Part shown: positions 10,509 to 48,852 of the stretch, one piece after another
Position numbering within the stretch: the first letter of the stretch is position 1
Layout of the letters: each line of letters begins with the position of its first letter
Source: a virus
Lineage: Duplodnaviria > Caudoviricetes
Virus record (IMG/VR): IMGVR_UViG_3300006790_001053
Coordinates: 1-55,045 of that record
Reading direction: 5' to 3' (one strand)
DNA length: 55,045 nucleotides
The notes under the pieces: generated by a model
Databases searched by the model: none
Told to the model about the DNA's origin: nothing
Seen by the model: only the letters and a program-made list of their open reading frames with translations
Position numbers and translations under genes: made by a program

Positions 10509-10513
10509 TTTTC

Positions 10514-12616: not shown

Positions 12617-12635
12617 TTAAAATTTTTCTATATAA

Positions 12636-12645: not shown

Positions 12646-12675
12646 TAAAAAATTTTGATTATTCGTTTATCATAA

Positions 12676-12685
12676 AATATTTATA
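12676..12685 (+). promoter_or_regulatory. Putative late promoter AATATTTATA
   Basis: 3 nt upstream of GTG 12689; back-to-back with the 12636 copy. Confidence 0.5.
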
Positions 12686-12688
12686 AGT

Positions 12689-13243: not shown

Positions 13244-13248
13244 TCAAA

Positions 13249-15218: not shown

Positions 15219-16330
15219 TCTATGTTTGGGTCTAAGTCCGAATCCATTCTAAATTTACTGAAATAGTTATCATATCTTTTTTGTGCTAGCTCTCTAATTT
15301 TTATTTCTCTTTCTTTAACTTCTTCAGAAACAATATCTAATAGTTTATCATATTCTTTCATCACATTTTTTTGACTATATTTACTATAATCTTGGTCTTT
15401 ATTGAATTTATACTCACCTTTGAATACTTTTCTTAAGGCCTTCTTATATTCACTATAATCAGTATCTTCCCATTTAGATTCTTTAGAATAAATCCATGTA
15501 TTGTCTGGGTTTCCTAATAAATCTATTTCTTTAGTGGGTAATAAAATTGAGTTTTCTTTATTTACAAAATCTTTATAACCACTGATTTTAGTATCTAAAG
15601 TGATTATATCTTTCTTTAATACAATAGCATTTAATAATGGGATACAAAAACCTTCCATATGTGATAAACAAATATAACAATCTATACCCCTTTCCAATGA
15701 GTATAAATACTCCTTGGGTAATCTCTTATTTAAAAATATGACTTCTGGTCTTTTTGGGTATTTTTTTAATATTTTTTTAATATCTAATAACCTATCTTTT
15801 GGTATTTCATTTAACTTTATTAATAACCTAACATTATCTTCTTTGGTAAACTCCTCTAAAAAATATTTTAATATACCTTCAATATTTTTCCTAGCTATAC
15901 CAGTAGATTCAGTATAAAACGTATATTTTTTTTCATCAAAAATACTATTGAAAAATCCATTGTCTTTTTTTAATAAGTCTTCATCATAGTAATTAGGTAT
16001 TACCTTTATTGGTTTAGTAACACCACATTCTTCTAGGAGTTTTTTATTAACACTAGAGGGGGTTACTATGTGATGAAATGTGTTGATGTTTGTTGTAATA
16101 CCAGAATTAATAACTGTACCATCCAAAGGTTGTATTAAAACTTTTCTATGAAAAATAAAATCGACAAAGTCGTGTATGTGGTTCATAATTAATATATCAC
16201 CATTAGTGGTGTTTACAACATTATATTTTTTTTTAAAATTTTCTTTTAGGTCCTCATTTATTTTTAATAAACTTTCACCTCTTCTGGACCATATCATTAA
16301 ATCTTGTTTTTTTTCTTTTTTCACAGACAT
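15215..16330 (-). CDS. GT4-like (GT-B) glycosyltransferase
   Basis: IVTPS, VIPN, RKNIEG and SHMEGFCIPLLNA motifs. Confidence 0.8.
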   Translation of the reverse strand: MSVKKEKKQDLMIWSRRGESLLKINEDLKENFKKKYNVVNTTNGDILIMNHIHDFVDFIFHRKVLIQPLDGTVINSGITTNINTFHHIVTPSSVNKKLLEECGVTKPIKVIPNYYDEDLLKKDNGFFNSIFDEKKYTFYTESTGIARKNIEGILKYFLEEFTKEDNVRLLIKLNEIPKDRLLDIKKILKKYPKRPEVIFLNKRLPKEYLYSLERGIDCYICLSHMEGFCIPLLNAIVLKKDIITLDTKISGYKDFVNKENSILLPTKEIDLLGNPDNTWIYSKESKWEDTDYSEYKKALRKVFKGEYKFNKDQDYSKYSQKNVMKEYDKLLDIVSEEVKEREIKIRELAQKRYDNYFSKFRMDSDLDPNID

Positions 16331-16440: not shown

Positions 16441-19400
16441 TTAATATCCGTAACCATTATAAGATATTTCTGACTGGTATCGTACACCATAAATAGTGTA
16501 TGTATCAGTAGTTCTACCGTTATAGTTTAATTTGATAGCACCTACTGGTTCTCCAGCAGCTGGTTTAACATCCAATGAAATTGTACTTGTAGCTATAGTC
16601 CAATCCACTCCCTCAACAAGAAGTTGACCGTTAAGGAATACTTGAATTGTATTTTGTTTCTGTTGATAATTCATTTGGAATCCTATCATATCACCATTTT
16701 GGTTAAGAGCTGGACTCATTACGTATGCCTTTTGAAGGTGATTGTCCTCTAATCTAGTTAAGTGATTAGTTACCTCAGAGAAAGAATCCATTGCTGTGAA
16801 ATCTGTATTAGAGATTATATCAGTAATTTTAGATTCTAAAGAAGTATCACCCTCTTCTCTTGCAGTAACTTCATCAGCTAAATCAGAAGTTAACGTATCG
16901 ATTGAAGCTTGTAACGTAGCGTCAGTAGCAATCCTTGCAGACTCTTCTGTAACTAACTTAGAATTAACATCAGCTAATTCAGCGTCATGTTTAACCTCTA
17001 AAGATGTTACAGCTGATTGACGAGCAGTAATCTCATCAGAGACTTGTAACTCAACATCAGTCTTCGCACTTAAGATAGCGTCACTCATGTCAGTTCTAAC
17101 CGCAGTGTCAGCAGCTTCTCTAGCAGCAACCTCATCAGCGATAGCTGTATTGATTGAGTTAACAGCCGCTAATAAAGCGTTGTCATTCTCTAAATCAACT
17201 TCCTCAACGAAAGATACTATCTCTTTGAATTGGTCTAGGTCGATTGAAGCTCCAGATAGGATAGCGTCAATTCTTCCTTTTTCAACGTCAATGTTAGACT
17301 GTAAAGTAGCGTCAGCAGCAACTCTTGAAGATGCTTCAGATGATACATCAGAGTTAATCTTAGCAGTTAATGCTTCGTCTCCAGCAACTCTTAAAGATGC
17401 TTCAGAAGATACATCAGCATCAATCTTAGTAGCTAAAGATGTGTCAGCAGCTACTCTAGCAGATGCCTCAGACGACATGTCTGAATCAATCTTAGCCTCT
17501 AAAGATGCGTCACCTGCTTCTCTAGCAACCACCTCGTTTGACATATCAGTGTCAATCTTAGTAGCTAAAGATGCGTCACCAGCAACTCTCGCAGATGCTT
17601 CAGAAGATACATCAGCATCAATCTTAGTCTCTAATGAAGCGTCATTAAATAATCTGAAATCAGTTTCATTTGATAAATCAGCTTCTAAAGATGCGTCAGC
17701 GGCTTCTCTAGCAGCTTTCTCAGTTGATACGTCAGCGTTAATTTTAGCCTCTAATAAAGAATCAGCAGCTTCTCTAGCAGACTTCTCAGATGACACATCA
17801 GTGTCAACCTTAGTAGCTAAAGATGCGTCACCAGCAACTCTTGCTGATGCTTCAGATGACATATCAGAATCTAACTTAGCTTCCAGTGAATTATCACCAG
17901 CAACTCTAGCAGATGCTTCAGATGACATATCAGCGTCCATCTTAGTCTCTAATGAGATATCAGCAGCTAATCTAGTAGATGCTTCAGATGATACGTCTGA
18001 ATTGATTTTGTTCTCTAATGAACCTTCAGCAGCAATCGCTCTCGCTTCCTCAGCGTCAACGTCAGCAATTCTTGAAGATACCTCATCAGCAACAACTTGT
18101 GCTAATGAAGCTTCAGCAGCTAATGCTCTTGCTTCCTCAGCGTTAACGTCAGCAACTCTATCAGCAATCTCGTCAGCTAATTTAGTATCTAAAGAACCTT
18201 CAGCAGCAATTGCTCTAGTTTCCTCAGCGTTAACGTCAGCGATTCTATCAGACACCTCATTGTTTAATGCTGTATCTAATGATAATTCAGCAGCTTCCGC
18301 TCTAGATACCTCAGCAGATAAGTTAGCGGCTTGGTTTAAGTCGTTAGCAACTCTGTCAGAGATTTCGTTATCCAAACTAGTTTGTAAAGCTTGGTCACCA
18401 GCAGTTCTATCAACAATCTCTTGTGAAATTGCCGCGTCATGTGCTTGGTCAGCAGCTAATCTAGAAGATGCTTCACCAGCTAATGCTGTGTCTAATGAAG
18501 ACTCAGCAGCTTCAGCTCTAGCAACCTCAGTTGATAATGATGCTTCTAATGAAGAATCACCAGCGATTCTTGAAGATACCTCAGAAGATACCGCTGCGTC
18601 ATTTGAAAGGACGTATGCTGCAAATGCTTGGTCGTTCTCAGTATCAACAGAGTTGATTAAAGTAACGATTTCAGCGAATGAATCAGCGTCAGCAGTTGAT
18701 GCACTTAAGATAGCGTCAATTCTTCCTTTCTCAACATCGATGTTAGACTGTAAAGTTCCATCAGCAGCTATTCTAGCAGCTTCCTCAACACCAATCTTAG
18801 TGTTTAAAGAACCTTCAGCAGCAATTGCTCTAGCTTCCTCAGCGTTAACATCCTCAATTCTGTTAGATGTCTCAGCCGCGATAGCGTCAGCGTTAGCAAC
18901 CTCAGCAACCTGTGCTCTAGAAGACTCAGAATCAATATTAGCTTGAAGTGTTGATACGTCAGCAATATGTTCTGCTTCTAAAGTGTCGATGTTATTCTGT
19001 AAGGTAGTGTCAGCAGCTAATCTAGAAGATGCTTCAGCAGCGTCTCCAGCGATTCTAGCAGATGCTTCAGCTGATACTTCACTATCAACTTTAGCGTCTA
19101 AAGTGTCGATGTTAGACTGTAAAGTAGCGTCAGCAGCTTGTCTAGCAGCAACTTCAGTTGACATTTCCTCATCATGAGCTACTTGTAAAGTACTCACTTT
19201 AGCGTCTAATGATGCGTCTCCAGCAATTCTGTTAGAGATTTCAGATGACATCTCACTGTCGTGTCTTGACTCAAAAGTGTCAATGTTAGACTGTAATTGA
19301 TTGTCAGCTGCTGCTCTAGCAGTTGCTTCAGCCGTATCAGCCGCTTCTCTTTCTGACTTCTCGTTAGATACATCAGCATTAACTTTTGTAGTTAATGATA

Positions 19401-19770
19401 AATCACCAGCTTCTCTAGCTGCTTTTTCAGTGGATACATCAGTGTCAATCTTTGACTCTAATGATGCGTCTCCAGCTACTCTGTCTGATGTTGCCGCATT
19501 ATACACAGAAGTTGTGTAAGCATACTGTGCGTCATCACCAGCAACTCTAGCAGATGCCTCAGACGACATGTCTGAATCAATCTTAGCTTCTAATGAATTA
19601 TCACCAGCAACTCTAAAAGATGCTTCAGCAAGGTCTGCTGCGTTTAAGTTTGCTAAATCGTCTACTAATCCAGGTAAATCTCCTTTTACGATACCACTTG
19701 GTTCAACGATTTGAGCGTTGTTTAAAATTAAATCTGACTGTCTATTTAATACTATTTTAGTATTTGCCAT
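16441..19770 (-). CDS. Long acidic Ala-rich coiled-coil fibre protein with small C-terminal beta domain
   Basis: Dozens of 11/22-aa repeats (KIDSDMSSEASARVAGDASLEA), three neck-like interruptions (DSFAEIV, DQFKEIV, DSFSEV) and C-terminal VFLNGQLLVEGVDWT. Confidence 0.8.
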   Translation of the reverse strand: MANTKIVLNRQSDLILNNAQIVEPSGIVKGDLPGLVDDLANLNAADLAEASFRVAGDNSLEAKIDSDMSSEASARVAGDDAQYAYTTSVYNAATSDRVAGDASLESKIDTDVSTEKAAREAGDLSLTTKVNADVSNEKSEREAADTAEATARAAADNQLQSNIDTFESRHDSEMSSEISNRIAGDASLDAKVSTLQVAHDEEMSTEVAARQAADATLQSNIDTLDAKVDSEVSAEASARIAGDAAEASSRLAADTTLQNNIDTLEAEHIADVSTLQANIDSESSRAQVAEVANADAIAAETSNRIEDVNAEEARAIAAEGSLNTKIGVEEAARIAADGTLQSNIDVEKGRIDAILSASTADADSFAEIVTLINSVDTENDQAFAAYVLSNDAAVSSEVSSRIAGDSSLEASLSTEVARAEAAESSLDTALAGEASSRLAADQAHDAAISQEIVDRTAGDQALQTSLDNEISDRVANDLNQAANLSAEVSRAEAAELSLDTALNNEVSDRIADVNAEETRAIAAEGSLDTKLADEIADRVADVNAEEARALAAEASLAQVVADEVSSRIADVDAEEARAIAAEGSLENKINSDVSSEASTRLAADISLETKMDADMSSEASARVAGDNSLEAKLDSDMSSEASARVAGDASLATKVDTDVSSEKSAREAADSLLEAKINADVSTEKAAREAADASLEADLSNETDFRLFNDASLETKIDADVSSEASARVAGDASLATKIDTDMSNEVVAREAGDASLEAKIDSDMSSEASARVAADTSLATKIDADVSSEASLRVAGDEALTAKINSDVSSEASSRVAADATLQSNIDVEKGRIDAILSGASIDLDQFKEIVSFVEEVDLENDNALLAAVNSINTAIADEVAAREAADTAVRTDMSDAILSAKTDVELQVSDEITARQSAVTSLEVKHDAELADVNSKLVTEESARIATDATLQASIDTLTSDLADEVTAREEGDTSLESKITDIISNTDFTAMDSFSEVTNHLTRLEDNHLQKAYVMSPALNQNGDMIGFQMNYQQKQNTIQVFLNGQLLVEGVDWTIATSTISLDVKPAAGEPVGAIKLNYNGRTTDTYTIYGVRYQSEISYNGYGY
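17453..19587. repeat. 66-bp-period coding repeats including a perfect 44-bp direct repeat (17453-17496 = 19544-19587)
   Basis: ACTCTAGCAGATGCCTCAGACGACATGTCTGAATCAATCTTAGC is present at both positions. Confidence 0.85.
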
Positions 19771-36240: not shown

Positions 36241-36940
36241 AGTAGACAAATTATTATTTTTTGATATAGAAACAGTAAGTCAATATAACGATTTATACGA
36301 CTTACCAGAAAGAGATTTTGAAATGTGGATGAGATATTATAACTCATTTAGAAAAAGAGTTACAGAAGAATCTAAAATTACTGAATCCATGTCAGAAAAA
36401 GAAATATTCCAAGAAGTATATAGACAAACAGCGGCTTTCTTTCCAGAATTTGGTAAAGTAGCTTGTGTCTCAATGGCTTTCGTAACTAAGACTGGTGAAG
36501 TTAGATATGAGTCTTTCTATGGTGAAGATGAAATGGAAATTTTGTTAAACACTAGAAAGGTCTTTGATAAAGTAGCTTCATTAGGTTTTGATTTATGTGG
36601 TCAGAGTGTTAAAATGTTTGATATACCTTTCTTAGGTAAAAGATTCTTTATAAATGGTTTAAAGACTCCTACAATGTTTCCTACACACGAAACTAAACCT
36701 TGGGAAATCAGAGTTGTGGATACAAAAGAGGTGTGGCAATTTGGTAACAATTGGTCACTTAGTTCTTTAGATTTAGTATGTTCAGCTTTAGATATAGATT
36801 CTCCTAAGAATGGTGACGTTAAAGGAGATAGTGTAACTACTGGATATTGGGAAGGTAAACATGAAGAAATCAAAGAATATTGTGAGAGAGATGTTAAAGC
36901 TTTAGTTGATATAATAAATAAAATTAACGACTTAAAATAA
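36230..36940 (+). CDS. Stand-alone PolB-type DEDDy 3'-5' exonuclease
   Basis: FFDIET, FDIPFL, VDTKEVW and YCERDV motifs. Start at ATG 36230. Confidence 0.85.
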   Translation: MQFKVDKLLFFDIETVSQYNDLYDLPERDFEMWMRYYNSFRKRVTEESKITESMSEKEIFQEVYRQTAAFFPEFGKVACVSMAFVTKTGEVRYESFYGEDEMEILLNTRKVFDKVASLGFDLCGQSVKMFDIPFLGKRFFINGLKTPTMFPTHETKPWEIRVVDTKEVWQFGNNWSLSSLDLVCSALDIDSPKNGDVKGDSVTTGYWEGKHEEIKEYCERDVKALVDIINKINDLK

Positions 36941-37518
36941 TGGCTGAAATTAAAGAACAAATACAAGAGTTAGAATATCTATTAACCCTAGATGTTTTAC
37001 ATGAAGAACAAAGAAAAGAAATTGAACAAGCATTATCTTTAATGCGTGAAGTCAAAGAACATAGAGAAGATATAAGTAAAATCAAAACTAAGTTCATCAA
37101 TAAATCAGACAATGAGAACCCAACTTACGCAAAAGAAGGGGATTCTGGTTTTGATTTAAGAGCTAATGAAGGTGGTACTTTGAGGTCTCTAGAAAGAAAA
37201 TTAGTTTCTACTGGACTTTATTTTGAACTACAAGAAGGATATGAATTACAGATTAGACCAAGAAGTGGTTTAGCTTATAAAAACGGTATAACTGTATTAA
37301 ACTCACCAGGAACAGTAGATACTGGTTATAGAGGTGAAGTAAAAGTACTTTTAGTTAATTTAAGTAACGATGATTTCACTTGGGAAAAAGGTGAAAGAAT
37401 AGCACAAGGGGTTATAACATCCAGAGTTAGTACTGATTTCGGTGAGTTAGAGGAGGTTAAAGAATTAACTGAATCCGAAAGAGGGTCTGGTGGTTTTGGT
37501 TCAACTGGTAGAATGTAA
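36940..37518 (+). CDS. dut: Trimeric dUTPase with N-terminal helical extension
   Basis: SGFDL, RPRSGLA, GTVDTGYRGE, ERIAQ and RGSGGFGSTG motifs. Confidence 0.96.
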   Translation: MAEIKEQIQELEYLLTLDVLHEEQRKEIEQALSLMREVKEHREDISKIKTKFINKSDNENPTYAKEGDSGFDLRANEGGTLRSLERKLVSTGLYFELQEGYELQIRPRSGLAYKNGITVLNSPGTVDTGYRGEVKVLLVNLSNDDFTWEKGERIAQGVITSRVSTDFGELEEVKELTESERGSGGFGSTGRM

Positions 37519-38012
37519 TGAGTGTTGTAGCGGTTAAAGTAACAGATAAGAAAATAACTATCGGAGCTGATAGTATATTAGTTTCTCACGGTACCACCCA
37601 AGAAAAAGATAAGTTCGCTAAACTAAACAAAGTTAACGATATTATTATTGGTGATGTGGGTGATGCTCAAGAAGGTGGTTTGTTTTTAATGTTTTGTAGA
37701 ACACGTAAACCTAGAGAAGCTTCAGTTGAAGCCATAATAGAGTTTATGTCAGAGTTCCAAGATTGGATGAAGAACAAAACTGATGAGAGTAAACTAAGTA
37801 ATGAGTATATTTTAGTTTTAGATAAAAAAGCCTTTCTTGTGGAAGGATTTTTTGTTAAAGAGATAACGGACTTTACAGCTATTGGTGCGGGTATGGACTT
37901 TTCTTTGTCAGCACTTTACTTAGGTAACTCCGTTAAAGAATCAATAAAAGCGGCTTGTCATTTATCGGTTTATTGTGAAGAACCCATTAATATAATGGAG
38001 GTTAAAAAATGA
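37518..38012 (+). CDS. Ntn-hydrolase, HslV/proteasome-beta-like protein
   Basis: SVVAVK...IGADS...K...AIGAG...ALSAL...AACHLSVYC layout. Confidence 0.7.
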   Translation: MSVVAVKVTDKKITIGADSILVSHGTTQEKDKFAKLNKVNDIIIGDVGDAQEGGLFLMFCRTRKPREASVEAIIEFMSEFQDWMKNKTDESKLSNEYILVLDKKAFLVEGFFVKEITDFTAIGAGMDFSLSALYLGNSVKESIKAACHLSVYCEEPINIMEVKK

Positions 38013-38182
38013 TTTTTTCAGAGAGAGAAAGGGAAAAGTTGGAGTCTCGTTTAAAAAAAACTAAAATAGAATTAACCATGAGGGATAGATTAGATGGTTG
38101 GTACATAAAGTCGTTGGAAGATAAAATAAAAGAAATAGAATCTAAAATAGGATTAAAAAAACATAGTTTTAAAGATGGTTAG
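38009..38182 (+). CDS. Hypothetical 57-aa protein (below the ORF-track cut-off)
   Basis: MIFSEREREKLESRLKKTKIELTMRDRLDGWYIKSLEDKIKEIESKIGLKKHSFKDG; ATGA overlap upstream and 8-nt overlap downstream fill the gap exactly. Confidence 0.65.
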   Translation: MIFSEREREKLESRLKKTKIELTMRDRLDGWYIKSLEDKIKEIESKIGLKKHSFKDG

Positions 38183-39719
38183 TGTTATTTACTCTACTAG
38201 AAAAGATAAACCAGAATTTATTGAACAAATAGAAAAAACATCTGGTGTACATAAGATAGAAATCATTCAAATTATTAATGACGGTGAAATGTCATTGACA
38301 GAGGCTTACAATAAAGGATTAGAAGAGTCTAATAATGATATTGTTGTTTTTTGTCATGATGATATTATTTTTGATACTAAAAATTGGGGCAGAAAATTAA
38401 CCTCTATTTTCAAAAAGAATCCAGAATACGGTATAATAGGTATTGCTGGTACAACTGATTTAGTAGACGGTAGATGGTGGACCTTAAAAGAATCTATGAA
38501 TGGAATAGTATCACACCAACACGAAGGTAAGAAATGGACTAATTATTATTCCAAAGACCAAGGTAATAAAATAACTGATATGGTTGTTTTAGATGGTCTT
38601 TTCTTAGCTGTAAATAAAAATAAAATAAAACATACTTTTGATGAAGATTTTCATGGATTTCATTTCTATGATATTTCTTTTTGTTTCCCAAATTACTTAG
38701 ATGGTGTGAAAGTGGGTTTAACTACACAAATAAGAGTTACTCATCTATCTATTGGAGAAACAAACAAACAGTGGGAAGGTCATAAAGTTAGATTTGAAGA
38801 AAAATATAAAGATAAGTTACCAATTAGATTAACTAATAATAAAACCTTTGAGGAGAAGTTAGAATTTAATCCTAAGAATATTGGTTTTGGTATGGTGACT
38901 TATAATGCTGAACATAGAATTAAACAAAGTGCTTTTACTGTTCCAGATTGGGTAGAAAATTTTGTCATTGTAAACGATGGTACACCATACAACGAAGACT
39001 CTTACCCCAAACACGCAAAGATAATACAACACGAAGTAAATAAATCGGTAGGAGCAGCTAAAACAACAGCTATAAATTATTTAATGAAGAATACGGATTG
39101 TGAACATATTTTCATAATGGAGGATGATATTCTAATTAAAGATGAAAAGGTATTTGAAGAGTATATAAAACACTCTCTCATATCTGGTATTAAACATTTA
39201 AATTTTGGTTTACATGGACCAGCTAACAAAAAAGATGGACAAGGTTTCACTAGTTTAGAAGATAGAAAAGATACTGAAGGTGAACCAAATCCTAGGATGT
39301 TAATACCGTATAAAAATGAAGAAGAAGATGAGGCAGATGTTACTATCGCTTTATACCCTAATTGTGTTGGGGCGTTTTCTTATTACTATAGACCTGTTCT
39401 AGAAGACATTGGTGGATTTGACCCTAATTTTAAAAACGCTTGGGAACACGTAGAACATACTTATCAAGCAATCAAAAAAGGGTATCATCCAGCTTTTTGG
39501 TATTTCGCTGATATTAATAAGAGTTGGGAGTATTTAACGGACATACCCAATTCAATAGAAGAGAGTACAATAGCTAGAACACCAACATGGAACGATAACT
39601 TTAGAAAGGGTACTTTATGGTATAAAAAGAAACATGGAGTTACCCCAACTGAAACACCTTTGGCTACAAAAGAGTTAGTCCAAAAACAATTACACGCAAT
39701 ATATCAAAATAGAGGATAA
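38175..39719 (+). CDS. Two-domain GT2 (GT-A) glycosyltransferase
   Basis: Domain 1: AYNKG, FCHDD, LDGLF, HFYD. Domain 2: VTYN, VNDG, IMEDD, WEHVE. Confidence 0.88.
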   Translation: MVSVIYSTRKDKPEFIEQIEKTSGVHKIEIIQIINDGEMSLTEAYNKGLEESNNDIVVFCHDDIIFDTKNWGRKLTSIFKKNPEYGIIGIAGTTDLVDGRWWTLKESMNGIVSHQHEGKKWTNYYSKDQGNKITDMVVLDGLFLAVNKNKIKHTFDEDFHGFHFYDISFCFPNYLDGVKVGLTTQIRVTHLSIGETNKQWEGHKVRFEEKYKDKLPIRLTNNKTFEEKLEFNPKNIGFGMVTYNAEHRIKQSAFTVPDWVENFVIVNDGTPYNEDSYPKHAKIIQHEVNKSVGAAKTTAINYLMKNTDCEHIFIMEDDILIKDEKVFEEYIKHSLISGIKHLNFGLHGPANKKDGQGFTSLEDRKDTEGEPNPRMLIPYKNEEEDEADVTIALYPNCVGAFSYYYRPVLEDIGGFDPNFKNAWEHVEHTYQAIKKGYHPAFWYFADINKSWEYLTDIPNSIEESTIARTPTWNDNFRKGTLWYKKKHGVTPTETPLATKELVQKQLHAIYQNRG

Positions 39720-40453
39720 TGGAAAAGAATTTTGAAACAACATTTTTAATCTCAACATTTAACAATGTTGAGTACATCGAAGAGTGTTTAGACTCAATAG
39801 AGAACCAAACTTATTTTAAAGACGGAGAAGCTAGATTCCAAGTTTTAATTGGAGTAGATGGTTGTCCCAAAACTTATGAAAAAATATTAGAAATAAAAGA
39901 TAAGTATCGTAATTTAGATGTTTATAATCTAGAGAAAAATATGGGAGCTTATATCGCTCTTAACACTTTAATACCACATATCAAATACGATAATATAATA
40001 GTATTTGGTAGTGATGATGTTATGGTACCAGAAGCCATAGATATTTTATCCAAAGTAGATAATCAATATGATATCGTTAAGTTTCTTTATAAAGTATTTC
40101 AAAACAACATACAGAATGTTGTGGCGAATGCTAGAGCCACAGCGGCTGGAGCTATTATGGTTAGAAAAAGAGTTTTTGATATGTGTGGGGGTTATCACCA
40201 CAATAGATTTTCTTCAGACTTTGAATTATTAACTAGATTACATAAATTTACAAAAACGATTAACCTAAAAGATTATATTTTTTATTATAGAGCACATCAA
40301 AAAAGTTTAACCACAACAGTTAATAAAACAAAAAGAATTCAATTCGATAATATGGTTAGGAGAACTAATTACACCAAAGATAACCTTAAAATCGACCCTA
40401 TTGTTTCTAGAATAAAAGATAGTTTTACAACTTTCAAAGAAAACGTAGTATGA
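39719..40453 (+). CDS. GT2 glycosyltransferase
   Basis: ISTFNNVEYIEECLDSI, GVDG, GSDD, SDFEL and YYRAH motifs. Confidence 0.9.
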   Translation: MEKNFETTFLISTFNNVEYIEECLDSIENQTYFKDGEARFQVLIGVDGCPKTYEKILEIKDKYRNLDVYNLEKNMGAYIALNTLIPHIKYDNIIVFGSDDVMVPEAIDILSKVDNQYDIVKFLYKVFQNNIQNVVANARATAAGAIMVRKRVFDMCGGYHHNRFSSDFELLTRLHKFTKTINLKDYIFYYRAHQKSLTTTVNKTKRIQFDNMVRRTNYTKDNLKIDPIVSRIKDSFTTFKENVV

Positions 40454-41058
40454 TAGAAAAATTAGAACATATACAACCTAATTTAAAAATTAGTGAAAAT
40501 GTAGCTGTTATTGGTTCTAGTTATACTTTATTAAACAATCAATATGGTGAAGAGATTGATAGTTTTGATGATGTTATTAGATTTAATAGAGCTCCAATTA
40601 AGGGTTTTGAAGATCACGTTGGTACTAAAACAACTGTAAGAGCAGCTAATATTCATGTTTTTACTGGTAGACCACCAGATAGTAGATTTAATATAAAAAC
40701 ACAGAACCCAAAGTTCATAAAAAATGAAAAAAATTGTAATATAGTATGTGTTCAAAAGGTGTCAAACGCTAATAAATTTGTTCATGAAAGTTCAAAACCA
40801 TATTTTATGGATTCTATGTCATTTTTAAACAATAAATACAATCTAGGTAAAGACCCAACAGTAGGTTTTAGGATGATATACATATTAATAACTAATAACT
40901 ATAAACCCACGTTATTTGGTTTTGGTGTTAATGAATCCGATAAACCAACACATTATTGGGAAAAACTAAACCACAAATCTACTTACCATAATTTAAATAA
41001 AGAGAGAGATATTATTAAAAAATGGGTAGAAAAAGGTAAAGTTACAATAAAATTATAA
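40450..41058 (+). CDS. GT29 sialyltransferase-family protein
   Basis: Sialylmotif L VAVIGSS...GEEIDSFDDVIRFNRAPIKGFEDHVGTKTT, motif S PTVG...LFGF, motif III HYWE and motif VS HNLNKE. Confidence 0.88.
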   Translation: MIEKLEHIQPNLKISENVAVIGSSYTLLNNQYGEEIDSFDDVIRFNRAPIKGFEDHVGTKTTVRAANIHVFTGRPPDSRFNIKTQNPKFIKNEKNCNIVCVQKVSNANKFVHESSKPYFMDSMSFLNNKYNLGKDPTVGFRMIYILITNNYKPTLFGFGVNESDKPTHYWEKLNHKSTYHNLNKERDIIKKWVEKGKVTIKL

Positions 41059-41061
41059 TAT

Positions 41062-41388
41062 ATGATTATTTATGTAGATATTGATGAGACCATTTGTAGT
41101 AAATCAGAAGATTTGGATTATAGTAAAGCAGAACCTTGGGTTGGTAGGATAGAATATATAAATGGGTTATATGATAAAGGTCACACCGTAATTTATTGGA
41201 CCGCTAGAGGTAGTGGGACAGGAAAGGATTGGTCAGAAGTGACCAAAACACAATTTCAAAAATGGGGAGTAAAATACCATGGCTTAAAATTTAAAAAACC
41301 AGTATACGATATTTTTATAGACGATAAAAATATAAATTCTTTAGATTGGGATAAATTTAAAGAAAAAACTTTATTTAATGATAAATAA
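41062..41388 (+). CDS. Small capless HAD phosphatase (capsule-biosynthesis type)
   Basis: DIDET, WTARG, KKP and IDDK motifs. Confidence 0.85.
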   Translation: MIIYVDIDETICSKSEDLDYSKAEPWVGRIEYINGLYDKGHTVIYWTARGSGTGKDWSEVTKTQFQKWGVKYHGLKFKKPVYDIFIDDKNINSLDWDKFKEKTLFNDK

Positions 41389-42325
41389 TAATTATAGTGA
41401 ATATATGAATTTTAATAAACCAGTATACCCACTATGCCCTTCTTTTGATAAAGAAGATAATTTCTCAATAGAGGTAGAATCTACTAAAAAATATATTAAA
41501 TTTTTAAGTGAAAATGGGGTTAACTCGATAATGACAACTGCTGGTACCTCACAATTTAATTTACTCTCAGTTGAAGAGACGCGTAAATTAAATCAGTGTT
41601 TATCTTATTTTGGTGGGAACAAAATAGTTGGTATCCCACCATTGTCTTTACAACATATTGGGGGGGAAATAAAATATTATAATAATTATTTTTCAGGTTT
41701 AGATAATGTTTTTTATCTAATATTATTTCCAGAAAGGTACTACACCAACGAACAAATTATAAAATATTTTAAACAAATAGATAGACTAAGTAATTTTCCT
41801 ATTCTAGCTCATGGTAACACATTAAAAAAAGGTTATGGTGGTACGTATATATATGAAAATGGTTTATTGAAAGGGTTGTCTAAAATACCTAAATTTATTG
41901 GTATAAAAGAAGAATCACCTACTATCGATTTCTCAATAAAAGAAATGTCTGATTTAAATTTAGAAATTATAGTTGCTGGTGGTAGTATGAGGAGGTTTTG
42001 GTGTTTAGAACCTTTCGGTGCTACTTCTTATTTGAGTGGGGTTGGTAGTTTTTTCCCTTCTCTAGAAGAATCTTTTTATGAACATTATAAAAAAAATGAA
42101 ATAGTTGAGGCTAAAAATATAATGTTGAATATAGAAAAACCTCTTTTTGATGTCTTCATGTCAATAGGTTGGCATGCTAGTATGAGGTTTACGTTACAAA
42201 AAATGGGTTTTATAAAAGACAATAGAGACCCTTTTATTGAAATTGGTGAAGAAGAAGAAAACAAAATTAATCATATAATAGAAAAAATTAAAAATTATGA
42301 AGACGTTTATTATAGGACCGTGTAG
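41378..42325 (+). CDS. DHDPS/N-acetylneuraminate lyase-family class I aldolase
   Basis: AGTSQFNLLSVEE and Schiff-base GIKEES. Confidence 0.8.
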   Translation: MINNNYSEYMNFNKPVYPLCPSFDKEDNFSIEVESTKKYIKFLSENGVNSIMTTAGTSQFNLLSVEETRKLNQCLSYFGGNKIVGIPPLSLQHIGGEIKYYNNYFSGLDNVFYLILFPERYYTNEQIIKYFKQIDRLSNFPILAHGNTLKKGYGGTYIYENGLLKGLSKIPKFIGIKEESPTIDFSIKEMSDLNLEIIVAGGSMRRFWCLEPFGATSYLSGVGSFFPSLEESFYEHYKKNEIVEAKNIMLNIEKPLFDVFMSIGWHASMRFTLQKMGFIKDNRDPFIEIGEEEENKINHIIEKIKNYEDVYYRTV

Positions 42326-43034
42326 TTTAGAAACATATGAATTATCTTATGAAGTATTAAAAAAAGTTCATCCATATATGGGTGAAAAAGATTTTTATTT
42401 TAAAGGTTCTTTTGACAAAGCAAACAGAAGTTCAATTACTGGTAAAAGAGGTCCAGGATTAGAAGAAGGATTAAACATTTTTAAACAATTAAAAAAAGAT
42501 TTTCCTGGGTTACAAACAACTACTGATGTACACGAAGTTCATCAAGTAGAGAAACTTAGTGAAGTTATTGATTTAATCCAAATACCCGCCTTTTTATGTA
42601 GACAAACAGATTTATTGGTGGAATCGGCTAAACATTTTAACAAGGTAAATATTAAGAAGGGACAGTGGATGTCACCACAAAACATGGTAAAAGGTGTAGA
42701 TAAACTAAAGACCACTAATTCCAATTGTGATGTTTGGGTGTGTGAAAGAGGTACAGCATTGGGTTATTCACAATTAATAGTAGATTTCGCATCTGTTGAT
42801 ATATTAAAAGAACATTTTGATAAGGTTATATTAGATTGTACACATTCCGCTCAATTAACAAAACCAAACGGTAGAATAGGTGGAAACCCAAAGTTAGCAG
42901 AGAGATACTTTAAAGCAGCAGAGATATTTGGGTATGATGGCGTATTTGTGGAAGCTCATCCAACACCTTCATTATCTTATTCAGACGCGGATTCAGTATT
43001 ACCATTAGATGTTATGGAAAATTTATTAAAATAA
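42297..43034 (+). CDS. kdsA: KDO 8-phosphate synthase (metal-dependent type)
   Basis: GPC, FDKANRSS, QIPAFLCRQTDLL, NIKKGQ, ERG, DCTH, EAHP and SD motifs. Confidence 0.95.
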   Translation: MKTFIIGPCSLETYELSYEVLKKVHPYMGEKDFYFKGSFDKANRSSITGKRGPGLEEGLNIFKQLKKDFPGLQTTTDVHEVHQVEKLSEVIDLIQIPAFLCRQTDLLVESAKHFNKVNIKKGQWMSPQNMVKGVDKLKTTNSNCDVWVCERGTALGYSQLIVDFASVDILKEHFDKVILDCTHSAQLTKPNGRIGGNPKLAERYFKAAEIFGYDGVFVEAHPTPSLSYSDADSVLPLDVMENLLK

Positions 43035-43690
43035 TGAAAATTTCTGTTTTAGGTGATAGTCACTGTAGAGTTTTTAGTAATACAAATGTATTTACACCTT
43101 TCTTTTTAGGACCTGGTAGTAAATTCAACCTAATACAAAACTCAAAAGGGATAAAAACAAAATTAAAAGGGTTATTAAAAGAGATAGGTAAAAAATATGA
43201 TTACAACATGTTAATATTTGGGGAACCTTCTTGTAGGTACCAAGTCAACAACGACCACTACATTTATAGTAAAAACTTTGAACGGTATGATGTCGTCAAC
43301 GAAGAACATCTAAAAACAATGGTAGATAGGTATGAAGATATCATTACCACTTTTAAAGATTATAATTTAATAGTTTGTGCACCAATATCTGTTTACACAC
43401 AATCTATTAAATTTTCTAATATATTCTCATCTAAAATTAAAAAAATTTGTGAAAAAAATAATATTCACTTTGTAGATATTAAAAAAGAAATTATAAACGA
43501 TGGTGGTTTTGTTGACGAAGATTATAAATCCGACCCAATACACGCATCACAAAAAGTATTAAAATTTATAGAAAAAAGTTTAAACGAAATAGATATTAAT
43601 ATAAAAATAGAAATAATTAAAACTGAAAGTTTTAAAGAAATAAAAAATAAATATAAATTTAATCAAAAATTCAATTGTTATGTATATTAA
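43034..43690 (+). CDS. SGNH/GDSL hydrolase-like protein
   Basis: LGDSH, FGEPSCR and DPIH motifs. Confidence 0.65.
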   Translation: MKISVLGDSHCRVFSNTNVFTPFFLGPGSKFNLIQNSKGIKTKLKGLLKEIGKKYDYNMLIFGEPSCRYQVNNDHYIYSKNFERYDVVNEEHLKTMVDRYEDIITTFKDYNLIVCAPISVYTQSIKFSNIFSSKIKKICEKNNIHFVDIKKEIINDGGFVDEDYKSDPIHASQKVLKFIEKSLNEIDINIKIEIIKTESFKEIKNKYKFNQKFNCYVY

Positions 43691-44315
43691 AAAGTTTTGG
43701 GAATCTGTATCTGAGGATTGGAGGCATTTCTCCAGTGGGCCTAAAAAAATGAAGGATAATAAAAAGAAATATATTATTAATAATGTTAACAACCATATAT
43801 TCTCAAAAATTAATAAAGATGAGATAGAAACCACGTTAGATTGGGGTTGTGGTGGTGGAATATTATCCAAAGAGATAAGTAAATTCTCTAAAGTAGGTAT
43901 TGTAGATCTAACTAAAACTAGTTTAGAGAATGCTAAAAAGTATTTAGGTGAAAAAAATTATCTTTTAGATATAGAGTTACCAAACGATATATCTGAATAT
44001 AGTTACGATGGACCTAAAGTTGACTTAGTTTTTTGTCACGCAGTTATCCAACATTTCCCCACAATAAATTATTTTGAAAAAGTTTTATCAGTGTGGGAAG
44101 ATATAAATCCTAAATATATTGCCATACAAATTAAATTAGATAATGAAACTAAAGAATGTAAAAATTACGAGAAAGAGTTTTTAAATGGTTTATTTTTTAG
44201 TGAGGATGATATCATAAAATATTTTAATGATATTAATTATAAAAATATAAGTATTGGATATAGTAAAACTTTAAATAATAAAATTAAGTTAGGTTACTAC
44301 GTTTTTAAAAAATAA
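43680..44315 (+). CDS. Class I SAM-dependent methyltransferase
   Basis: LDWGCGGG, IVDL and DLVFCHAVIQHFP motifs. Confidence 0.88.
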   Translation: MYIKKFWESVSEDWRHFSSGPKKMKDNKKKYIINNVNNHIFSKINKDEIETTLDWGCGGGILSKEISKFSKVGIVDLTKTSLENAKKYLGEKNYLLDIELPNDISEYSYDGPKVDLVFCHAVIQHFPTINYFEKVLSVWEDINPKYIAIQIKLDNETKECKNYEKEFLNGLFFSEDDIIKYFNDINYKNISIGYSKTLNNKIKLGYYVFKK

Positions 44316-44319
44316 AAAT

Positions 44320-45000
44320 ATGAAAAAATTATGTATTATACCAGCTAGGGGTGGTAGTAAAAGATTACCAAAAAAAAACATTAAATCTTTAAATGGTAAA
44401 CCACTAGTATTTTACACATTAGATTCAGTAATTAATTCAAAAGTTTTTGATAAAATTATTTTTACATCTGATGATAATGAAATATTAGATGTGGTTAGAT
44501 TAAATTATAGTATTAAAAATTTGAGTGTAGTTGAAAGACCAACCAATTTAGCTTCAGATACATCTAAGGTAATTGATACTGTTCTTCATTTTTTAGATGA
44601 TGATTACGAACAAACATGGTTAACGTTACCCACATCACCTTTAAAAATAGAAAAAGATTTTATTGATGCAGATAAGTTATTAACCAAGGAAGATGATTCG
44701 GTATTATCTTATACTGAAATGGAGTTTCCACCATCACTTGGGTTAGTTGTAAAAAACAATAATATCCTAGAGGATTATGACGAAACACAACCTTGGCAGA
44801 ACGGTAATTCTCGTTCACAAGACCACCCAACAATTTATAGACCTAATGGAGCTCTTTATGGTAGTTGGACACACAAACTAAAACATAATAAAAACTATTA
44901 CGTGGGTAGAACAAAAGGTTACTTTATGCCAAGAAATAGGTCAATAGACATCGACACCCAATTCGAATTTGATTTAGCAGAATTTATGTTAAAAAAATAA
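44320..45000 (+). CDS. neuA: Acylneuraminate cytidylyltransferase (NeuA/PseF-type CMP-ulosonate synthetase)
   Basis: IIPARGGSKRLPKKN, LPTSP, RSQD, NGALY and SIDIDT motifs. Confidence 0.88.
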   Translation: MKKLCIIPARGGSKRLPKKNIKSLNGKPLVFYTLDSVINSKVFDKIIFTSDDNEILDVVRLNYSIKNLSVVERPTNLASDTSKVIDTVLHFLDDDYEQTWLTLPTSPLKIEKDFIDADKLLTKEDDSVLSYTEMEFPPSLGLVVKNNNILEDYDETQPWQNGNSRSQDHPTIYRPNGALYGSWTHKLKHNKNYYVGRTKGYFMPRNRSIDIDTQFEFDLAEFMLKK

Positions 45001-45064
45001 TTTTTACTATATACTTTAGTTCTAAACCCGTATATTATTAATTATAATAAATTTTAATTAATAT

Positions 45065-45847
45065 ATGGCTAGAAGAAGAAACAAAAAGCTATCAGAAGAA
45101 GATTTTCAAGAGATACAAGAATTTGTATACAGAAAAAATCAAGAAGAGGATAAATTCCTAACCTCAACCTCAGTAAATTACAAGTGTAGAAACGAAAACC
45201 AAGGTAAACTAAGAGACTCAATTCGAAACAACGAAATAACTATTGTCTCTGGATTACCAGGTACTGGAAAAACTTATATCGCTTGTGCTGAAGCCCTTAA
45301 ATTGATAAAATCAAAACCAAGATATAAAAAAATATTGCTGGTTAAATCTATTACCCAACTAAGAGGAGAAGAACTAGGTTCCTTACCTGGTGATTTAAAT
45401 GAAAAGTTTGACCCTTACTTGGGTTCTTTCATAGATAATTTCGAGAAGATTATTGGTGAATCACTAACTAAAAAACTAAGAGAACTAGGTTTAATTAATA
45501 TTCAACCTTTAGCCTTTGTAAGGGGTAGAAGTATTGATAGCACAATTATAATTGTTGATGAGGCTCAAAATATTACTTTAGATAATATGAGAACACTTAT
45601 GACTCGTATCGGTGACAATTCAAAAATGGTTATTTTGGGTGATGTTAAACAAAAAGATTTGAGGAATAAGAAAGATAGTTCTTTAGAAGTTATCATAGAC
45701 AAATTTAATAATGTAGATAACTTTGGATGTGTGGAACTTAGAAACCCAAACGATGTGGTTAGAAACCCAATTATTAAAGTAATTGAAAGTGTCTTTGATG
45801 ACTTAGACGAAACTGTAAAAACTAAAAAAGGATTAATAAAAGGATAA
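45065..45847 (+). CDS. phoH: PhoH-family ATPase
   Basis: GLPGTGKT, LGSLPG, VRGRS, DEAQN, TRIG, GDVKQ and VRNP motifs. Confidence 0.95.
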   Translation: MARRRNKKLSEEDFQEIQEFVYRKNQEEDKFLTSTSVNYKCRNENQGKLRDSIRNNEITIVSGLPGTGKTYIACAEALKLIKSKPRYKKILLVKSITQLRGEELGSLPGDLNEKFDPYLGSFIDNFEKIIGESLTKKLRELGLINIQPLAFVRGRSIDSTIIIVDEAQNITLDNMRTLMTRIGDNSKMVILGDVKQKDLRNKKDSSLEVIIDKFNNVDNFGCVELRNPNDVVRNPIIKVIESVFDDLDETVKTKKGLIKG

Positions 45848-46565: not shown

Positions 46566-46922
46566 ATGGATAGATTATTTAATATAGCTGGTGAAGAATA
46601 TTATTTGGATTTAGATAGAATATCTAATTTCTCAAAAATGGAACCTACTATAGATGAAATATTGGAAAGAAGAGAGATAGAAACTGTGTCTGGTGACACC
46701 AGAACGGAGTATGTCCAACATTTTCCCGATAATAATGGTGGTCAAATGATTGATGTTGTTAAATGGGAAACAGTTAGAGCTTTACTAGAATCTTTATTAC
46801 AAGAAAATGGTGTTATAGACGAATCTATGGGTTTTAGAAAATTGGAAGGTCAATTATCTATACCTTTTAGAATCGCCTTTAATACATTACTAAAAAATAA
46901 ATTAATAAGAAAAAATGGATAA
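46566..46922 (+). CDS. Hypothetical protein
   Basis: ATG 46566 (MDRLFN); C-terminal LSIPFRIAFNTLL. Confidence 0.75.
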   Translation: MDRLFNIAGEEYYLDLDRISNFSKMEPTIDEILERREIETVSGDTRTEYVQHFPDNNGGQMIDVVKWETVRALLESLLQENGVIDESMGFRKLEGQLSIPFRIAFNTLLKNKLIRKNG

Positions 46923-48036
46923 TTTAAACACACAAGAAATTGTAGAAACATTAAAAACAAATCTAAAAAGACTTGAGGAGAAAGACTTCTCAATTTACTT
47001 TTTTGTGATTGACACAAACGGTGCTCCAACTGGAGCTGTTGCTAACATTTACGAACATGTAAAATTATTAACAGAGTTAGGTTATAACGCTCATATTTTA
47101 CACGAGAAAAATGAATACGCAACTAAACAAGTTGATTATATCAAATCTTGGTTAGGTGAAGAATATTCATCTTTATCACATGTATCGATAGAAGACAAGA
47201 CTGTTAAAATAAACATGACTGATATTATTATGGTACCAGAGTTATTCGCAAATGTAATGGAACAAACGGTAAACCTTCCTGGTAAAAGAGTTGTTTTCTG
47301 TCAGTCTTATGATTATATCACAGAAACATTACAACCAGGTAAAACTTGGTTAGACTACGGAATTACTGATTGTATTACAACTACTGAAAAACAAAAAGAG
47401 TATATCGATAACCTTTTCAATGAAAGAGTTAATACTAGAGTAGTACCAGTAGCCGTAGATAGTAGATTCACTAAAAATACTGAACCTAAGAAACCTATTG
47501 TGGCTATAATGACTAGAGACCAAAGAGACACTGTAAAGATATTCAAGAATTTCTACATCAAGTACCCACATTTAAAATGGATTACTTTCAGAGATATGCG
47601 TGGAATGAGTAAAGATGTTTTTGCGGAAGCATTAAAAGAGTCTTGTGTGGCTGTATGGGTAGACGATATCGCTGGATTTGGAACTTTCCCTATCGAGTCT
47701 ATGGCTTGTGGAACACCTGTAATCGGTAAACTACCAAACTTAGCAAATGGTTGGGTAACAGAAAAGAATGGTATTTGGGTAGATAATACGGTAATTATAC
47801 CAGATTTACTATCACAATATCTTCAGTCTTGGTTAGAAGACTCAGTACCATCAGATATCTTCTCAGAAATGGATGAAACGGTGGGTAATTTCACCACAAA
47901 TATCATGAGAGATTCTGTTGAGTCTGTATATACTGAATTATTCGAAAATAGAGAAAAAGAAATAAAAGAAACTTTAGCCAAATATGAGGTTGATAATGTA
48001 ACCACTGTTGGTGGTGGAGAAACAAAAAACAAATAA
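46915..48036 (+). CDS. GT-B (GT4-like) glycosyltransferase
   Basis: MVPE, FCQ and AGFGTFPIESMACGTPVIG motifs. Confidence 0.82.
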   Translation: MDNLNTQEIVETLKTNLKRLEEKDFSIYFFVIDTNGAPTGAVANIYEHVKLLTELGYNAHILHEKNEYATKQVDYIKSWLGEEYSSLSHVSIEDKTVKINMTDIIMVPELFANVMEQTVNLPGKRVVFCQSYDYITETLQPGKTWLDYGITDCITTTEKQKEYIDNLFNERVNTRVVPVAVDSRFTKNTEPKKPIVAIMTRDQRDTVKIFKNFYIKYPHLKWITFRDMRGMSKDVFAEALKESCVAVWVDDIAGFGTFPIESMACGTPVIGKLPNLANGWVTEKNGIWVDNTVIIPDLLSQYLQSWLEDSVPSDIFSEMDETVGNFTTNIMRDSVESVYTELFENREKEIKETLAKYEVDNVTTVGGGETKNK

Positions 48037-48039
48037 AAA

Positions 48040-48852
48040 ATGGAAACTAATTTAACGGTAATATTACCAATACTAACACTAGATGAAAAAGAAAAAGATT
48101 TATTCGCTAACGCTGTAAAAAGTATTGAGGACCAAAAAGTAAGTGTAGATAGACTATTGATAGTTGTTCCTAAAAATAGTGAAGCTAAGAAAACTTTAGA
48201 TTCTTATGACTTTACAGAAGAGATTAAGAATATAACAACAGTTGTTGAAAACGATGGTGAGACTGATTTCTGTAGCCAAGTTAATCTAGGAGTAGAAAAT
48301 TGTGAAACAGAATGGTTTTCTATTTTAGAATTAGATGATATATACTCAGCTATATGGTTCGATAATTTTGTAGAATATAGAGAACATTATAAAGAAGTTG
48401 ATTTGTTCCTACCAATCGTATTAGATGTTAATGATGAAAACAAATTCTTACACTTTAGTAACGAACCAGTTTGGGCTAGAGACTTTAGTGAAAAAATGGG
48501 ATATGTCGACTATGATTCATTATTAAACTTCCCTAACTTCCAATTATGTGGTTCAGTTGTTAGAACAGAATCATTTAAATCTGTTGGGGGTCTAAAATCG
48601 ACTGTTAAGATGTTTTTCAATTATGAATTTTTATTAAGAATGTCTTACTATGATATGAGTATGATGACCATACCAAAAATAGGTTATAAAAAATATAACA
48701 TGAGAGAGAATTCTTTATTTTGGAAATATAAAAACGATAAAGAATATTTCATGGACCCATTAGAGTCTAAATTTTGGTACAACACCTCAAAGAAAGAATG
48801 TTATTTTAAAAATGATAGAGGAATAAAATATGAGGAAGAAAATGTACAATAG
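48040..48852 (+). CDS. GT2-like (GT-A) glycosyltransferase
   Basis: VILPI, VNLGV, ILELDD, VGGLK and YEFLLR motifs. Confidence 0.75.
   Translation: METNLTVILPILTLDEKEKDLFANAVKSIEDQKVSVDRLLIVVPKNSEAKKTLDSYDFTEEIKNITTVVENDGETDFCSQVNLGVENCETEWFSILELDDIYSAIWFDNFVEYREHYKEVDLFLPIVLDVNDENKFLHFSNEPVWARDFSEKMGYVDYDSLLNFPNFQLCGSVVRTESFKSVGGLKSTVKMFFNYEFLLRMSYYDMSMMTIPKIGYKKYNMRENSLFWKYKNDKEYFMDPLESKFWYNTSKKECYFKNDRGIKYEEENVQ

Follow-up and report, generated by a model that had tools for sequence, protein, structure and literature searches.

Ulosonic acids such as Kdo (3-deoxy-D-manno-octulosonate) and the sialic acids are found on cell surfaces, where they are recognised by other cells and by viruses. 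The canonical pathway to Kdo activated with cytidine monophosphate (CMP-Kdo) comprises KdsD, KdsA, KdsC and KdsB, followed by the GT30 transferase WaaA. The nonulosonic acid pathways use a synthase (NeuB, PseI or LegI), a cytidylyltransferase (NeuA, PseF or LegF) and a sialyltransferase. Here we describe a cassette of seven genes, including one for KdsA, at positions 40450-45000 of the viral record IMGVR_UViG_3300006790_001053 (IMG/VR). The whole stretch of 55,045 bases is referred to below as the window.

The cassette resembles both kinds of pathway. With the CMP-Kdo pathway it has in common a genuine-looking KdsA, a phosphatase step and a CMP-activation step. It differs in that KdsD is lacking, in that the phosphatase is a haloacid dehalogenase (HAD) protein of 108 residues, related to 9iqw and BT0820 and not called as KdsC, and in the use of an enzyme of NeuA/PseF type in place of KdsB and of a GT29 in place of GT30. 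It also contains an additional enzyme resembling dihydrodipicolinate synthase (DHDPS), together with tailoring genes. With the nonulosonic acid pathways it has in common the NeuA/PseF-like cytidylyltransferase and a GT29, which is the sialyltransferase family, and a sister branch of the DHDPS-like protein sits in NeuB cassettes with HAD and cytidylyltransferase genes. However, the phage synthase is KdsA, the eight-carbon type, and not NeuB, and no genes for amino-sugar precursors are found in the cassette.

GT29 proteins have been connected with Kdo before. RCKT1/MGP2 of Arabidopsis is a GT29, and rhamnogalacturonan II (RG-II) is without Kdo when it is lost (PMC11288761). For the capsule of E. 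coli K6, what may be a poly-Kdo has been proposed to be explained by a GT29-GT107 protein (PMC13171606), and in prasinophytes an expansion of GT29 accompanies Kdo-rich scales (PMC13213038). The phage protein shares its family with the plant and E. coli proteins, for which the link to Kdo is genetic and the role proposed, respectively (PMC11288761, PMC13171606). The structure named as closest to RCKT1 is 2WNB (PMC11288761), and the best solved match of the phage GT29 is also ST3Gal-I (2wml/2wnb). It differs from these two proteins in being only 202 residues long and free of an anchor, and its donor and acceptor are putative. In marine phages, KdsA found with KdsB or NeuA has been listed under 'LPS genes' (lipopolysaccharide; PMC12801897, PMC5332604). 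Searches of main texts, with few of the subscription journals covered, turned up no paper that describes the present cassette, a GT29 from a phage, or a DHDPS-like protein as the partner of KdsA or NeuB.

On the basis of the observations below, we propose, with somewhat more confidence than doubt, that the seven genes form a conserved, membrane-free phage module for a predicted CMP-activated and decorated eight-carbon ulosonic acid of Kdo type. One component, the DHDPS-like protein, may be a new enzyme. The cassette would thus be a virus-borne ulosonic acid pathway in which every protein is soluble and a Schiff-base enzyme is locked to the synthase. Its seven small proteins could yield a new reaction, new CMP-sugars and a compact transferase, and could show what large marine phages glycosylate.

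The cassette and its viral relatives

The seven open reading frames (ORFs) abut and are all on the + strand (Table 1). The junctions are, in order, a 3-nt gap, an 11-nt overlap, a 29-nt overlap, a 1-nt overlap, an 11-nt overlap and a 4-nt gap. The true start of the DHDPS-like gene may, judged from its homologues, be the second Met, and the 11-nt overlap with the HAD gene would therefore become a short gap. Hydrophobic segments are absent from all seven proteins. A previous reading made from the DNA letters alone (the sequence-only reading) had given the order as GT29, HAD, aldolase, KdsA, SGNH, methyltransferase and cytidylyltransferase. The genes, their order and their families are borne out by the ORF list, by Pfam, NCBIfam and PHROG and by structure matches, the family match of the HAD being weak (20.7 bits to NF046079, the BT0820 family, cut-off 165). 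The motifs it quoted (KANRS, GSKRLPKKN, PTSP, RSQD and NGALY) are all present in the translations. It was also correct in finding no KdsD and no NeuB in the window, to which TIGR00393 and PF03102 have 0 matches, although such an absence means little by itself because the window is only about 17% of the genome.

With KdsA as the query 8 viral loci were found, and a profile search with the DHDPS-like protein gave 30. Partners were sought by tblastn within 7 kb, so that divergent copies were possibly missed. Seven of the 8 loci from the KdsA search have the DHDPS-like gene directly upstream of KdsA and a cytidylyltransferase downstream. Of the 30 loci from the profile search, 29 are assessable (L009 ends inside the aldolase gene), and in all 29 KdsA follows directly after the DHDPS-like gene; this order is found in L003 as well. 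A cytidylyltransferase is present in 23/30. An independent metagenome contig of 14,816 nt is collinear with the window over 39500-45500, with 200 differences, no gaps and the same gene order. The synteny survey was one that the sequence-only reading had proposed, and its own alternative of a chance mosaic fails because the genes co-occur in relatives; together with the independent contig, this rules out both an assembly chimera and a chance mosaic.

KdsA matches NF003543 with 265.7 bits (cut-off 242), and the Kdo-8-phosphate synthase (Kdo8PS) of Aquifex aeolicus (1fwn) with an E value of 9.2e-60. Aligned with 1fwn, it retains a Cys, a His, a Glu and an Asp, the motif KANRS and the stretch IQIPAFLCRQT, and across 19 phage homologues these residues show little or no variation. 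We take the Cys, His, Glu and Asp to be the metal ligands of Kdo8PS, and KANRS to be its arabinose-5-phosphate motif. On this evidence KdsA looks fully functional. Among deposited phages it matches 13 records, and the cassette is in neither of the two that were opened.

The cytidylyltransferase matches PF02348 with 78.6 bits, and, over its full length, NeuA of N. meningitidis (1eyr; E 1.6e-27 over 222 residues). The KdsB models cover residues 1-91 only, with 31-44 bits (cut-offs 155-281), and the KdsB structures in PDB likewise match the N-terminus only. By sequence comparison it is a relative of the NeuA/PseF branch, and no called member of it. The cytidylyltransferase beside KdsA is PseF/NeuA-like in all seven relatives tested (102-125 bits). 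In the cyanophage S-SCSM2R, on the other hand, KdsA occurs without a DHDPS-like gene, and its partner there is a genuine KdsB (200.6 bits, cut-off 193). This difference hints that the activated sugar is not plain Kdo. The sequence-only reading had described the enzyme set as mismatched. That is overstated, given the precedents for GT29 with Kdo (PMC11288761, PMC13171606) and given that the NeuA/PseF type is the rule here. The core of its proposal is supported, namely one conserved module whose genes would make, activate and transfer a 2-keto-3-deoxy sugar of Kdo type, probably with decorations.

The GT29 ORF matches PF00777 with 93.7 bits (cut-off 23, E 1.7e-26) and ST3Gal-I (2wml) with an E value of 2.4e-10 over motif L. 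Seven phage orthologues retain sialylmotif L, P[ST]VG, HYWE and H-x4-E, which we take to be the exact forms of the GT29 sialylmotifs. Sixteen homologues have lengths of 140-211 residues (15 of them 200-211), all with PF00777, and among deposited phages the protein matches one uncultured phage of 484 kb. The sialylmotifs described for GT29 are L, S, III and VS (PMC5811610). The phage protein has neither the membrane anchor of the animal type II enzymes (maximum KD19 0.82) nor their conserved disulfide. Bacterial GT29s without a transmembrane segment or conserved cysteines are known (PMC5811610), and the words 'phage' and 'virus' do not occur in that paper. At about 200 residues, the phage protein would rank as about the smallest catalytic core in the family of sialyltransferases.

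The HAD protein matches phrog_1238 (E 1.3e-30) and PDB entry 9iqw, a 'capsule biosynthesis protein' (E 4.4e-13), for which we found no paper. HAD motifs I-IV are readable in the translation as DIDET, T47, KKP and DD. No KdsC model is among its NCBIfam matches at E 0.01.

The SGNH ORF has no matches in Pfam, NCBIfam or PHROG. Its AlphaFold (AF2) model has a pLDDT (predicted local distance difference test score) of 87.8, and Foldseek matches it to GDSL/SGNH esterases with E values of 5e-7 to 1e-4 and TM (template modelling) scores of 0.55-0.57. These include GDSL lipases, acetyl-xylan esterases and sialate O-acetylesterases. Ser9, Asp167 and His170 are invariant in 8/8 homologues, and the predicted fold together with this Ser/Asp/His triad fits an SGNH/GDSL hydrolase. 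An orthologue occurs in 5/38 related loci, from three distinct contigs only, namely L004 (also numbered L010), L015 and L031. In a protein atlas the ORF has rank 22 with a score of 0.93, which is a lead only. The methyltransferase belongs to Methyltransf_25/11/12 and matches a UbiG-like model with 43 bits, below the cut-off; no close or informative solved structure was found for it.

What lies between KdsA and the cytidylyltransferase differs from one phage to the next. In the window this slot holds the SGNH and methyltransferase genes. Orthologues of the latter occupy it in L001, L003, L005 and L015, and elsewhere it holds other methyltransferases, a PhyH-type dioxygenase (L002, L004, L006/L007 and L019), weak sulfotransferase-like ORFs (L001 and L005) or a GSCFA protein (L005). 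This content fits a decorated sugar, the tailoring enzymes being putative ones that would act on the sugar, and the swapping of genes within the slot suggests diversifying selection on the sugar. In some relatives (L031, L003) the GT29 gene is present two or three times. It is worth adding that L003 (10056-13270) and L008 (3460-8783) contain KdsA cassettes together with NeuB, a second cytidylyltransferase that is shorter, and additional GT29-like genes that are divergent; a single phage may therefore produce acids of eight as well as of nine carbons.

The DHDPS-like protein

The third protein of the cassette matches PF00701 with 43.5 bits (cut-off 22.1), and the dapA model TIGR00674 with 35.5 bits (cut-off 206). 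Its AF2 model has a pLDDT of 90.9. Structure comparison against this predicted model (VIA) gave Z scores of 27-29.4 and root-mean-square deviations of 2.2-3.0 over 279-288 residues, alike for all branches of the superfamily. The equal matches, which were also obtained with Foldseek, comprise the sialic acid aldolases (N-acetylneuraminate lyases, NAL), DHDPS, YagE, HOGA, KdgD, L-2-keto-3-deoxyarabonate (L-KDA) dehydratase and 2-keto-3-deoxygluconate (KDG) aldolase. The closest solved structure is therefore useless as a guide to function.

With the class I enzymes of the DHDPS/NAL superfamily the protein has in common the fold, the Schiff-base lysine of the GIKE motif and the Tyr-Tyr pair. The lysine (Lys177, within GIKEE) is invariant in 23/23 close homologues, and is found in at least 90% of 18 sequences in a wider alignment. 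The differences lie around the active site. An invariant His145 stands at the position of DHDPS Tyr133, Gly56 is at that of Thr44, GTSQF replaces GTTGE, and a Glu-Arg insertion (FPERYY) precedes the Tyr-Tyr pair. Two further motifs, GWH and R-x-P, are invariant. The position of DHDPS Arg138 is taken by a basic residue, and the barrel strands are followed by more Arg and Lys that do not vary. The catalytic Tyr is Tyr133 in DHDPS and Tyr137 in NAL, and these enzymes have a GxTGE motif. Judged by these residues the protein belongs to the superfamily by fold and lysine, and is neither a DHDPS nor a NAL proper, for which the Tyr and GxTGE would be expected. A further difference from the superfamily is its fixed partnership with KdsA or NeuB.

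The subfamily is largely viral. A profile search of 1.84 billion representatives gave 132 clusters at E <=1e-30, and no match was obtained among 50,697 records of deposited phages. When 185,579 species genomes were scanned with a pattern, a single locus emerged, with the order aldolase-KdsA-cytidylyltransferase. Among 401 sampled genomes of that phylum there was one match, to the same metagenome-assembled genome (MAG), in which the gene has an internal TAA stop. Because the subfamily is nearly absent from the cellular genomes scanned, the hosts seem not to make the same sugar.

The sequence-only reading had treated the aldolase as optional, whereas it is rather the most constant partner of the synthase (29/29). 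This pattern extends to a distant branch of the family, with 22-28% identity and Lys177 kept. His145 is retained in all seven sequences that make up this branch, and Tyr is found there in two other distant sequences. In 10/10 loci the distant branch lies downstream of NeuB, and in 0/10 is KdsA present. These loci, L043-L051 among them, are on viral contigs, several of which are labelled giant-virus MAGs. The KdsA and NeuB branches separate cleanly on a tree (100/100). One such locus, L046 (3356-8624), encodes a GT29, a radical-SAM/SPASM protein, an SDR protein, NeuB, a HAD, the aldolase-like protein and a cytidylyltransferase; its HAD is 53% identical to that of the window.

A role as a stand-alone synthase was considered and rejected, as none of the 39 assessable loci lacks both KdsA and NeuB. 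The DHDPS-like protein thus constantly accompanies a 3-deoxy-ulosonate synthase that depends on phosphoenolpyruvate (PEP), and is linked to the phosphatase step. As the synthase may be of either kind, the simplest interpretation is that the protein acts on the part common to their products, the 2-oxo-3-deoxy-4-hydroxy acid head, at a stage when the tail probably still bears its phosphate. Our first guess at the reaction would be a re-setting of C4 by retro-aldol and aldol steps, and our second a 4-dehydration. We suggest, tentatively and as one possibility among several, that this is a Schiff-base enzyme of a new kind, whose role would be to edit the head group common to what PEP-dependent synthases produce (Kdo-8-phosphate here, and a nonulosonate phosphate in the NeuB branch), for example at C4. 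If so, these viruses would make ulosonic acids that their hosts do not, and would need their own NeuA-type enzyme and mini-GT29. It would also be a first route by which enzymes make ulosonic acids epimeric at C4; for one such sugar, 4-epilegionaminic acid, the origin was stated in 2017 to be unelucidated (PMC5595891).

Some homologues are longer. Of the 1140 profile matches, the best 150 include just two such forms, P0147 (583 residues) and P0249 (361 residues, with an unassigned N-terminus), and no aldolase-cytidylyltransferase fusion was seen among them. In P0147 a GT2 glycosyltransferase domain is N-terminal to the DHDPS-like domain in one protein. As predicted from its sequence, this fusion links the family physically to glycan assembly. 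In L031 (6716-7912) the HAD and DHDPS-like proteins are one ORF of 398 residues, followed by KdsA with a 4-nt overlap; the fusion is on a single contig and may be a sequencing error.

Proposed pathway and alternatives

We propose the following scheme. KdsA, with its active-site residues intact, would join PEP to arabinose-5-phosphate, probably of host origin, giving Kdo-8-phosphate. This would be processed by the DHDPS-like protein, which would form a Schiff base on the 2-oxo acid head and alter it there, and by the HAD protein, which would remove the terminal phosphate. The SGNH-fold protein and the methyltransferase would add or trim O-acyl and O-methyl groups. The NeuA/PseF-type enzyme would then form the CMP-sugar, and the soluble GT29 would move the sugar onto a putative glycan acceptor built in the cytoplasm by other phage glycosyltransferases. 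Since no hydrophobic segments were seen, and no flippase, polymerase or lipid-linked priming transferase was found among the ORFs scanned in the window, a cytoplasmic acceptor (a phage protein or a phage-made glycan) is favoured over host LPS, as judged from a fragment of about 17% of the genome.

The main alternative, a lesser but real possibility, is that the product is plain Kdo, which is afterwards O-methylated or O-acylated. The DHDPS-like protein would then offer a second, pyruvate-dependent route to Kdo-8-phosphate, from pyruvate and arabinose-5-phosphate when PEP is scarce, and would leave the sugar unchanged. DHDPS and NAL enzymes are by family pyruvate aldolases, the basic residue at the Arg138 position and the invariant Arg and Lys would suit a phosphorylated aldehyde, and the HAD-aldolase fusion of L031 fits an aldolase followed by a phosphatase. 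A redundant enzyme would however not be expected beside KdsA in 29/29 loci and beside NeuB in 10/10, down to 22-33% identity, or with a synthase of one or the other kind in every one of the 39 assessable loci. Moreover, the proton-relay Tyr and Thr of DHDPS and NAL have been swapped for His and Gly, and plain Kdo would be expected to have a partner of KdsB type, as in S-SCSM2R. Arg138 of DHDPS binds a carboxylate, and a basic residue at this position could also be taken to mean that the locus makes two acid sugars. KdsA and the HAD would produce Kdo, and the DHDPS-like protein would condense pyruvate with an anionic aldehyde, for example a four-carbon uronic one, into a heptulosaric acid resembling Dha (3-deoxy-D-lyxo-heptulosarate); one permissive cytidylyltransferase and one or more GT29s would serve both. 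Kdo and Dha do occur together in plant RG-II, where the activated form of Dha is given as not known (PMC11288761), and the relatives with two or three GT29 genes would suit such a scheme. We nevertheless hold it to be very improbable, because the window has one GT29, one cytidylyltransferase and no encoded source of such an aldehyde, and because the pairing with NeuB in the sister branch points to a role tied to the product of the synthase.

The published reading of KdsA/KdsB or NeuA/KdsA in marine phages (PMC12801897, PMC5332604) would make the cassette a set of auxiliary metabolic genes that boost or remodel the Kdo of host LPS or capsule, as in superinfection exclusion, with no phage-specific sugar. 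This too is very unlikely here. KdsB and GT30, which a pathway for host LPS would employ, were not found in the window scans, and among the ORFs scanned there is no membrane protein and none of the flippase, polymerase and priming functions named above. The DHDPS-like subfamily, in addition, is confined among the cellular genomes scanned to the one locus in 185,579 species genomes and the one match, with its internal stop, in 401 genomes of one phylum.

Several observations weigh against the decorated Kdo-type acid that we prefer. The structural tie between NAL, DHDPS, KdgD, L-KDA dehydratase and KDG aldolase means that the final sugar may not be Kdo-like. KdsA scores 258.3 bits against the stricter model TIGR01362, below its cut-off of 314. 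The cytidylyltransferase matches the PseF model TIGR03584 over positions 1-221 of 222 with 130.2 bits, below the cut-off of 205.7, and no family model in the NCBIfam scan names its sugar. The contrast with KdsB depends on one control, S-SCSM2R. Within 7 kb, the HAD was detected in 16/30 loci and GT29 in 12/30, and L017-L021 have no cytidylyltransferase at that distance and a PAP2 phosphatase at the place of the HAD. One of these, L019 (6216-9316), encodes the PAP2-family phosphatase followed by the aldolase-like protein, KdsA, a PhyH dioxygenase and a C-methyltransferase. The loci also include near copies (L017-L021, L023/27/28, L024/25, L029/30 and L037/38), and the tree gives about 20 independent lineages. 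Finally, KdsD, the arabinose-5-phosphate isomerase, was found neither in the window nor in the records of five relatives, one of which is 458 kb long and rated 100% complete. Arabinose-5-phosphate is therefore presumably supplied by the host, which is an assumed source, and the description of the cassette as self-contained in the sequence-only reading does not hold.

Surroundings of the cassette

The source is a large uncultured marine phage. The record is linear and about 17% complete by CheckV, and the genome is probably several hundred kb. Marks of a tailed phage in the window are Phage_base_V, a Peptidase_G2 tail-spike domain, PhoH, a family B polymerase and an SNF2 helicase. The polymerase is about 25% identical to those of Salinibacter phages, and there is nothing close among deposited phages. 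Near-identical words of the stretch were found in marine and aquatic metagenome runs from 11 other studies, one of which contains the 14,816-nt contig; no RNA data set was among the runs listed.

Family scans find at least 12 glycosyltransferase-like genes in the window, and the cassette is flanked by some of them (Table 1). The GT2 pair directly upstream is a probable builder of the acceptor glycan. In L002 and L004 the cassette is flanked by GT2 genes, and L005 has a homologue of the 514-residue GT2 upstream. The pair downstream of the cassette has 91-92% identity in L001.

Table 1. Positions of the cassette genes and of other glycan-related features in the window.
Feature	Position	Strand	Family match and remarks
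GT29, soluble, 202 aa	40450..41058	+	PF00777; proposed CMP-ulosonate transferase
Cap-less HAD phosphatase, 108 aa	41062..41388	+	Proposed ulosonate-phosphate phosphatase; KdsC analogue, not orthologue
DHDPS/NAL-fold Schiff-base enzyme, virus-borne subfamily	41378..42325	+	PF00701
KdsA, metal-type 3-deoxy-8-phosphooctulonate (Kdo-8-P) synthase	42297..43034	+	NF003543
SGNH/GDSL-fold protein	43034..43690	+	Predicted fold; proposed O-acyl esterase or transferase on the sugar
Class I S-adenosylmethionine-dependent methyltransferase	43680..44315	+	Proposed sugar O-methylation
NeuA/PseF-type CMP-ulosonate synthetase (cytidylyltransferase)	44320..45000	+	PF02348
Two GT2-family glycosyltransferases	38175..40453	+	PF13712/PF00535; directly upstream, second overlaps GT29 by 4 nt
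GT4-like and GT2-like glycosyltransferases	46915..48852	+	Weak PF00534 and PF00535, both below cut-off; downstream of cassette
Gly_transf_sug (DXD) paralogue 1 of 4	9603-10508	-	
Gly_transf_sug (DXD) paralogue 2 of 4	10514-11257	-	
Gly_transf_sug (DXD) paralogue 3 of 4	11254-11985	-	
Gly_transf_sug (DXD) paralogue 4 of 4	13249-14043	+	
DUF1796 papain-like peptidase	11975-12616		Within second glycosyltransferase block
DUF2827 protein	14040-15218		320 bits
GT1-family gene	15215-16330		In second glycosyltransferase block

A second glycosyltransferase block spans 9603-16330. No tRNAs were found in a scan of the window. Between 37500 and 49800, a promoter scan gave 68 sites against 69.7 expected, which is the level of chance, and a terminator scan gave 8 terminator-like sites against 3.7 expected, none of which convincingly splits the cassette.

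Some further features lie outside these blocks. An ORF of 1403 residues without a Pfam match (3-4211, - strand) runs past the edge of the window. An ORF of 619 residues (17087-18946, + strand) is antisense within one of 1109 residues (16441-19770, - strand) that has a weak PHROG match, and the antisense frame may be an effect of composition. At 36940-38012 a dUTPase with an N-terminal extension of about 45 residues precedes an HslV-like peptidase, the two genes overlapping by 1 nt.

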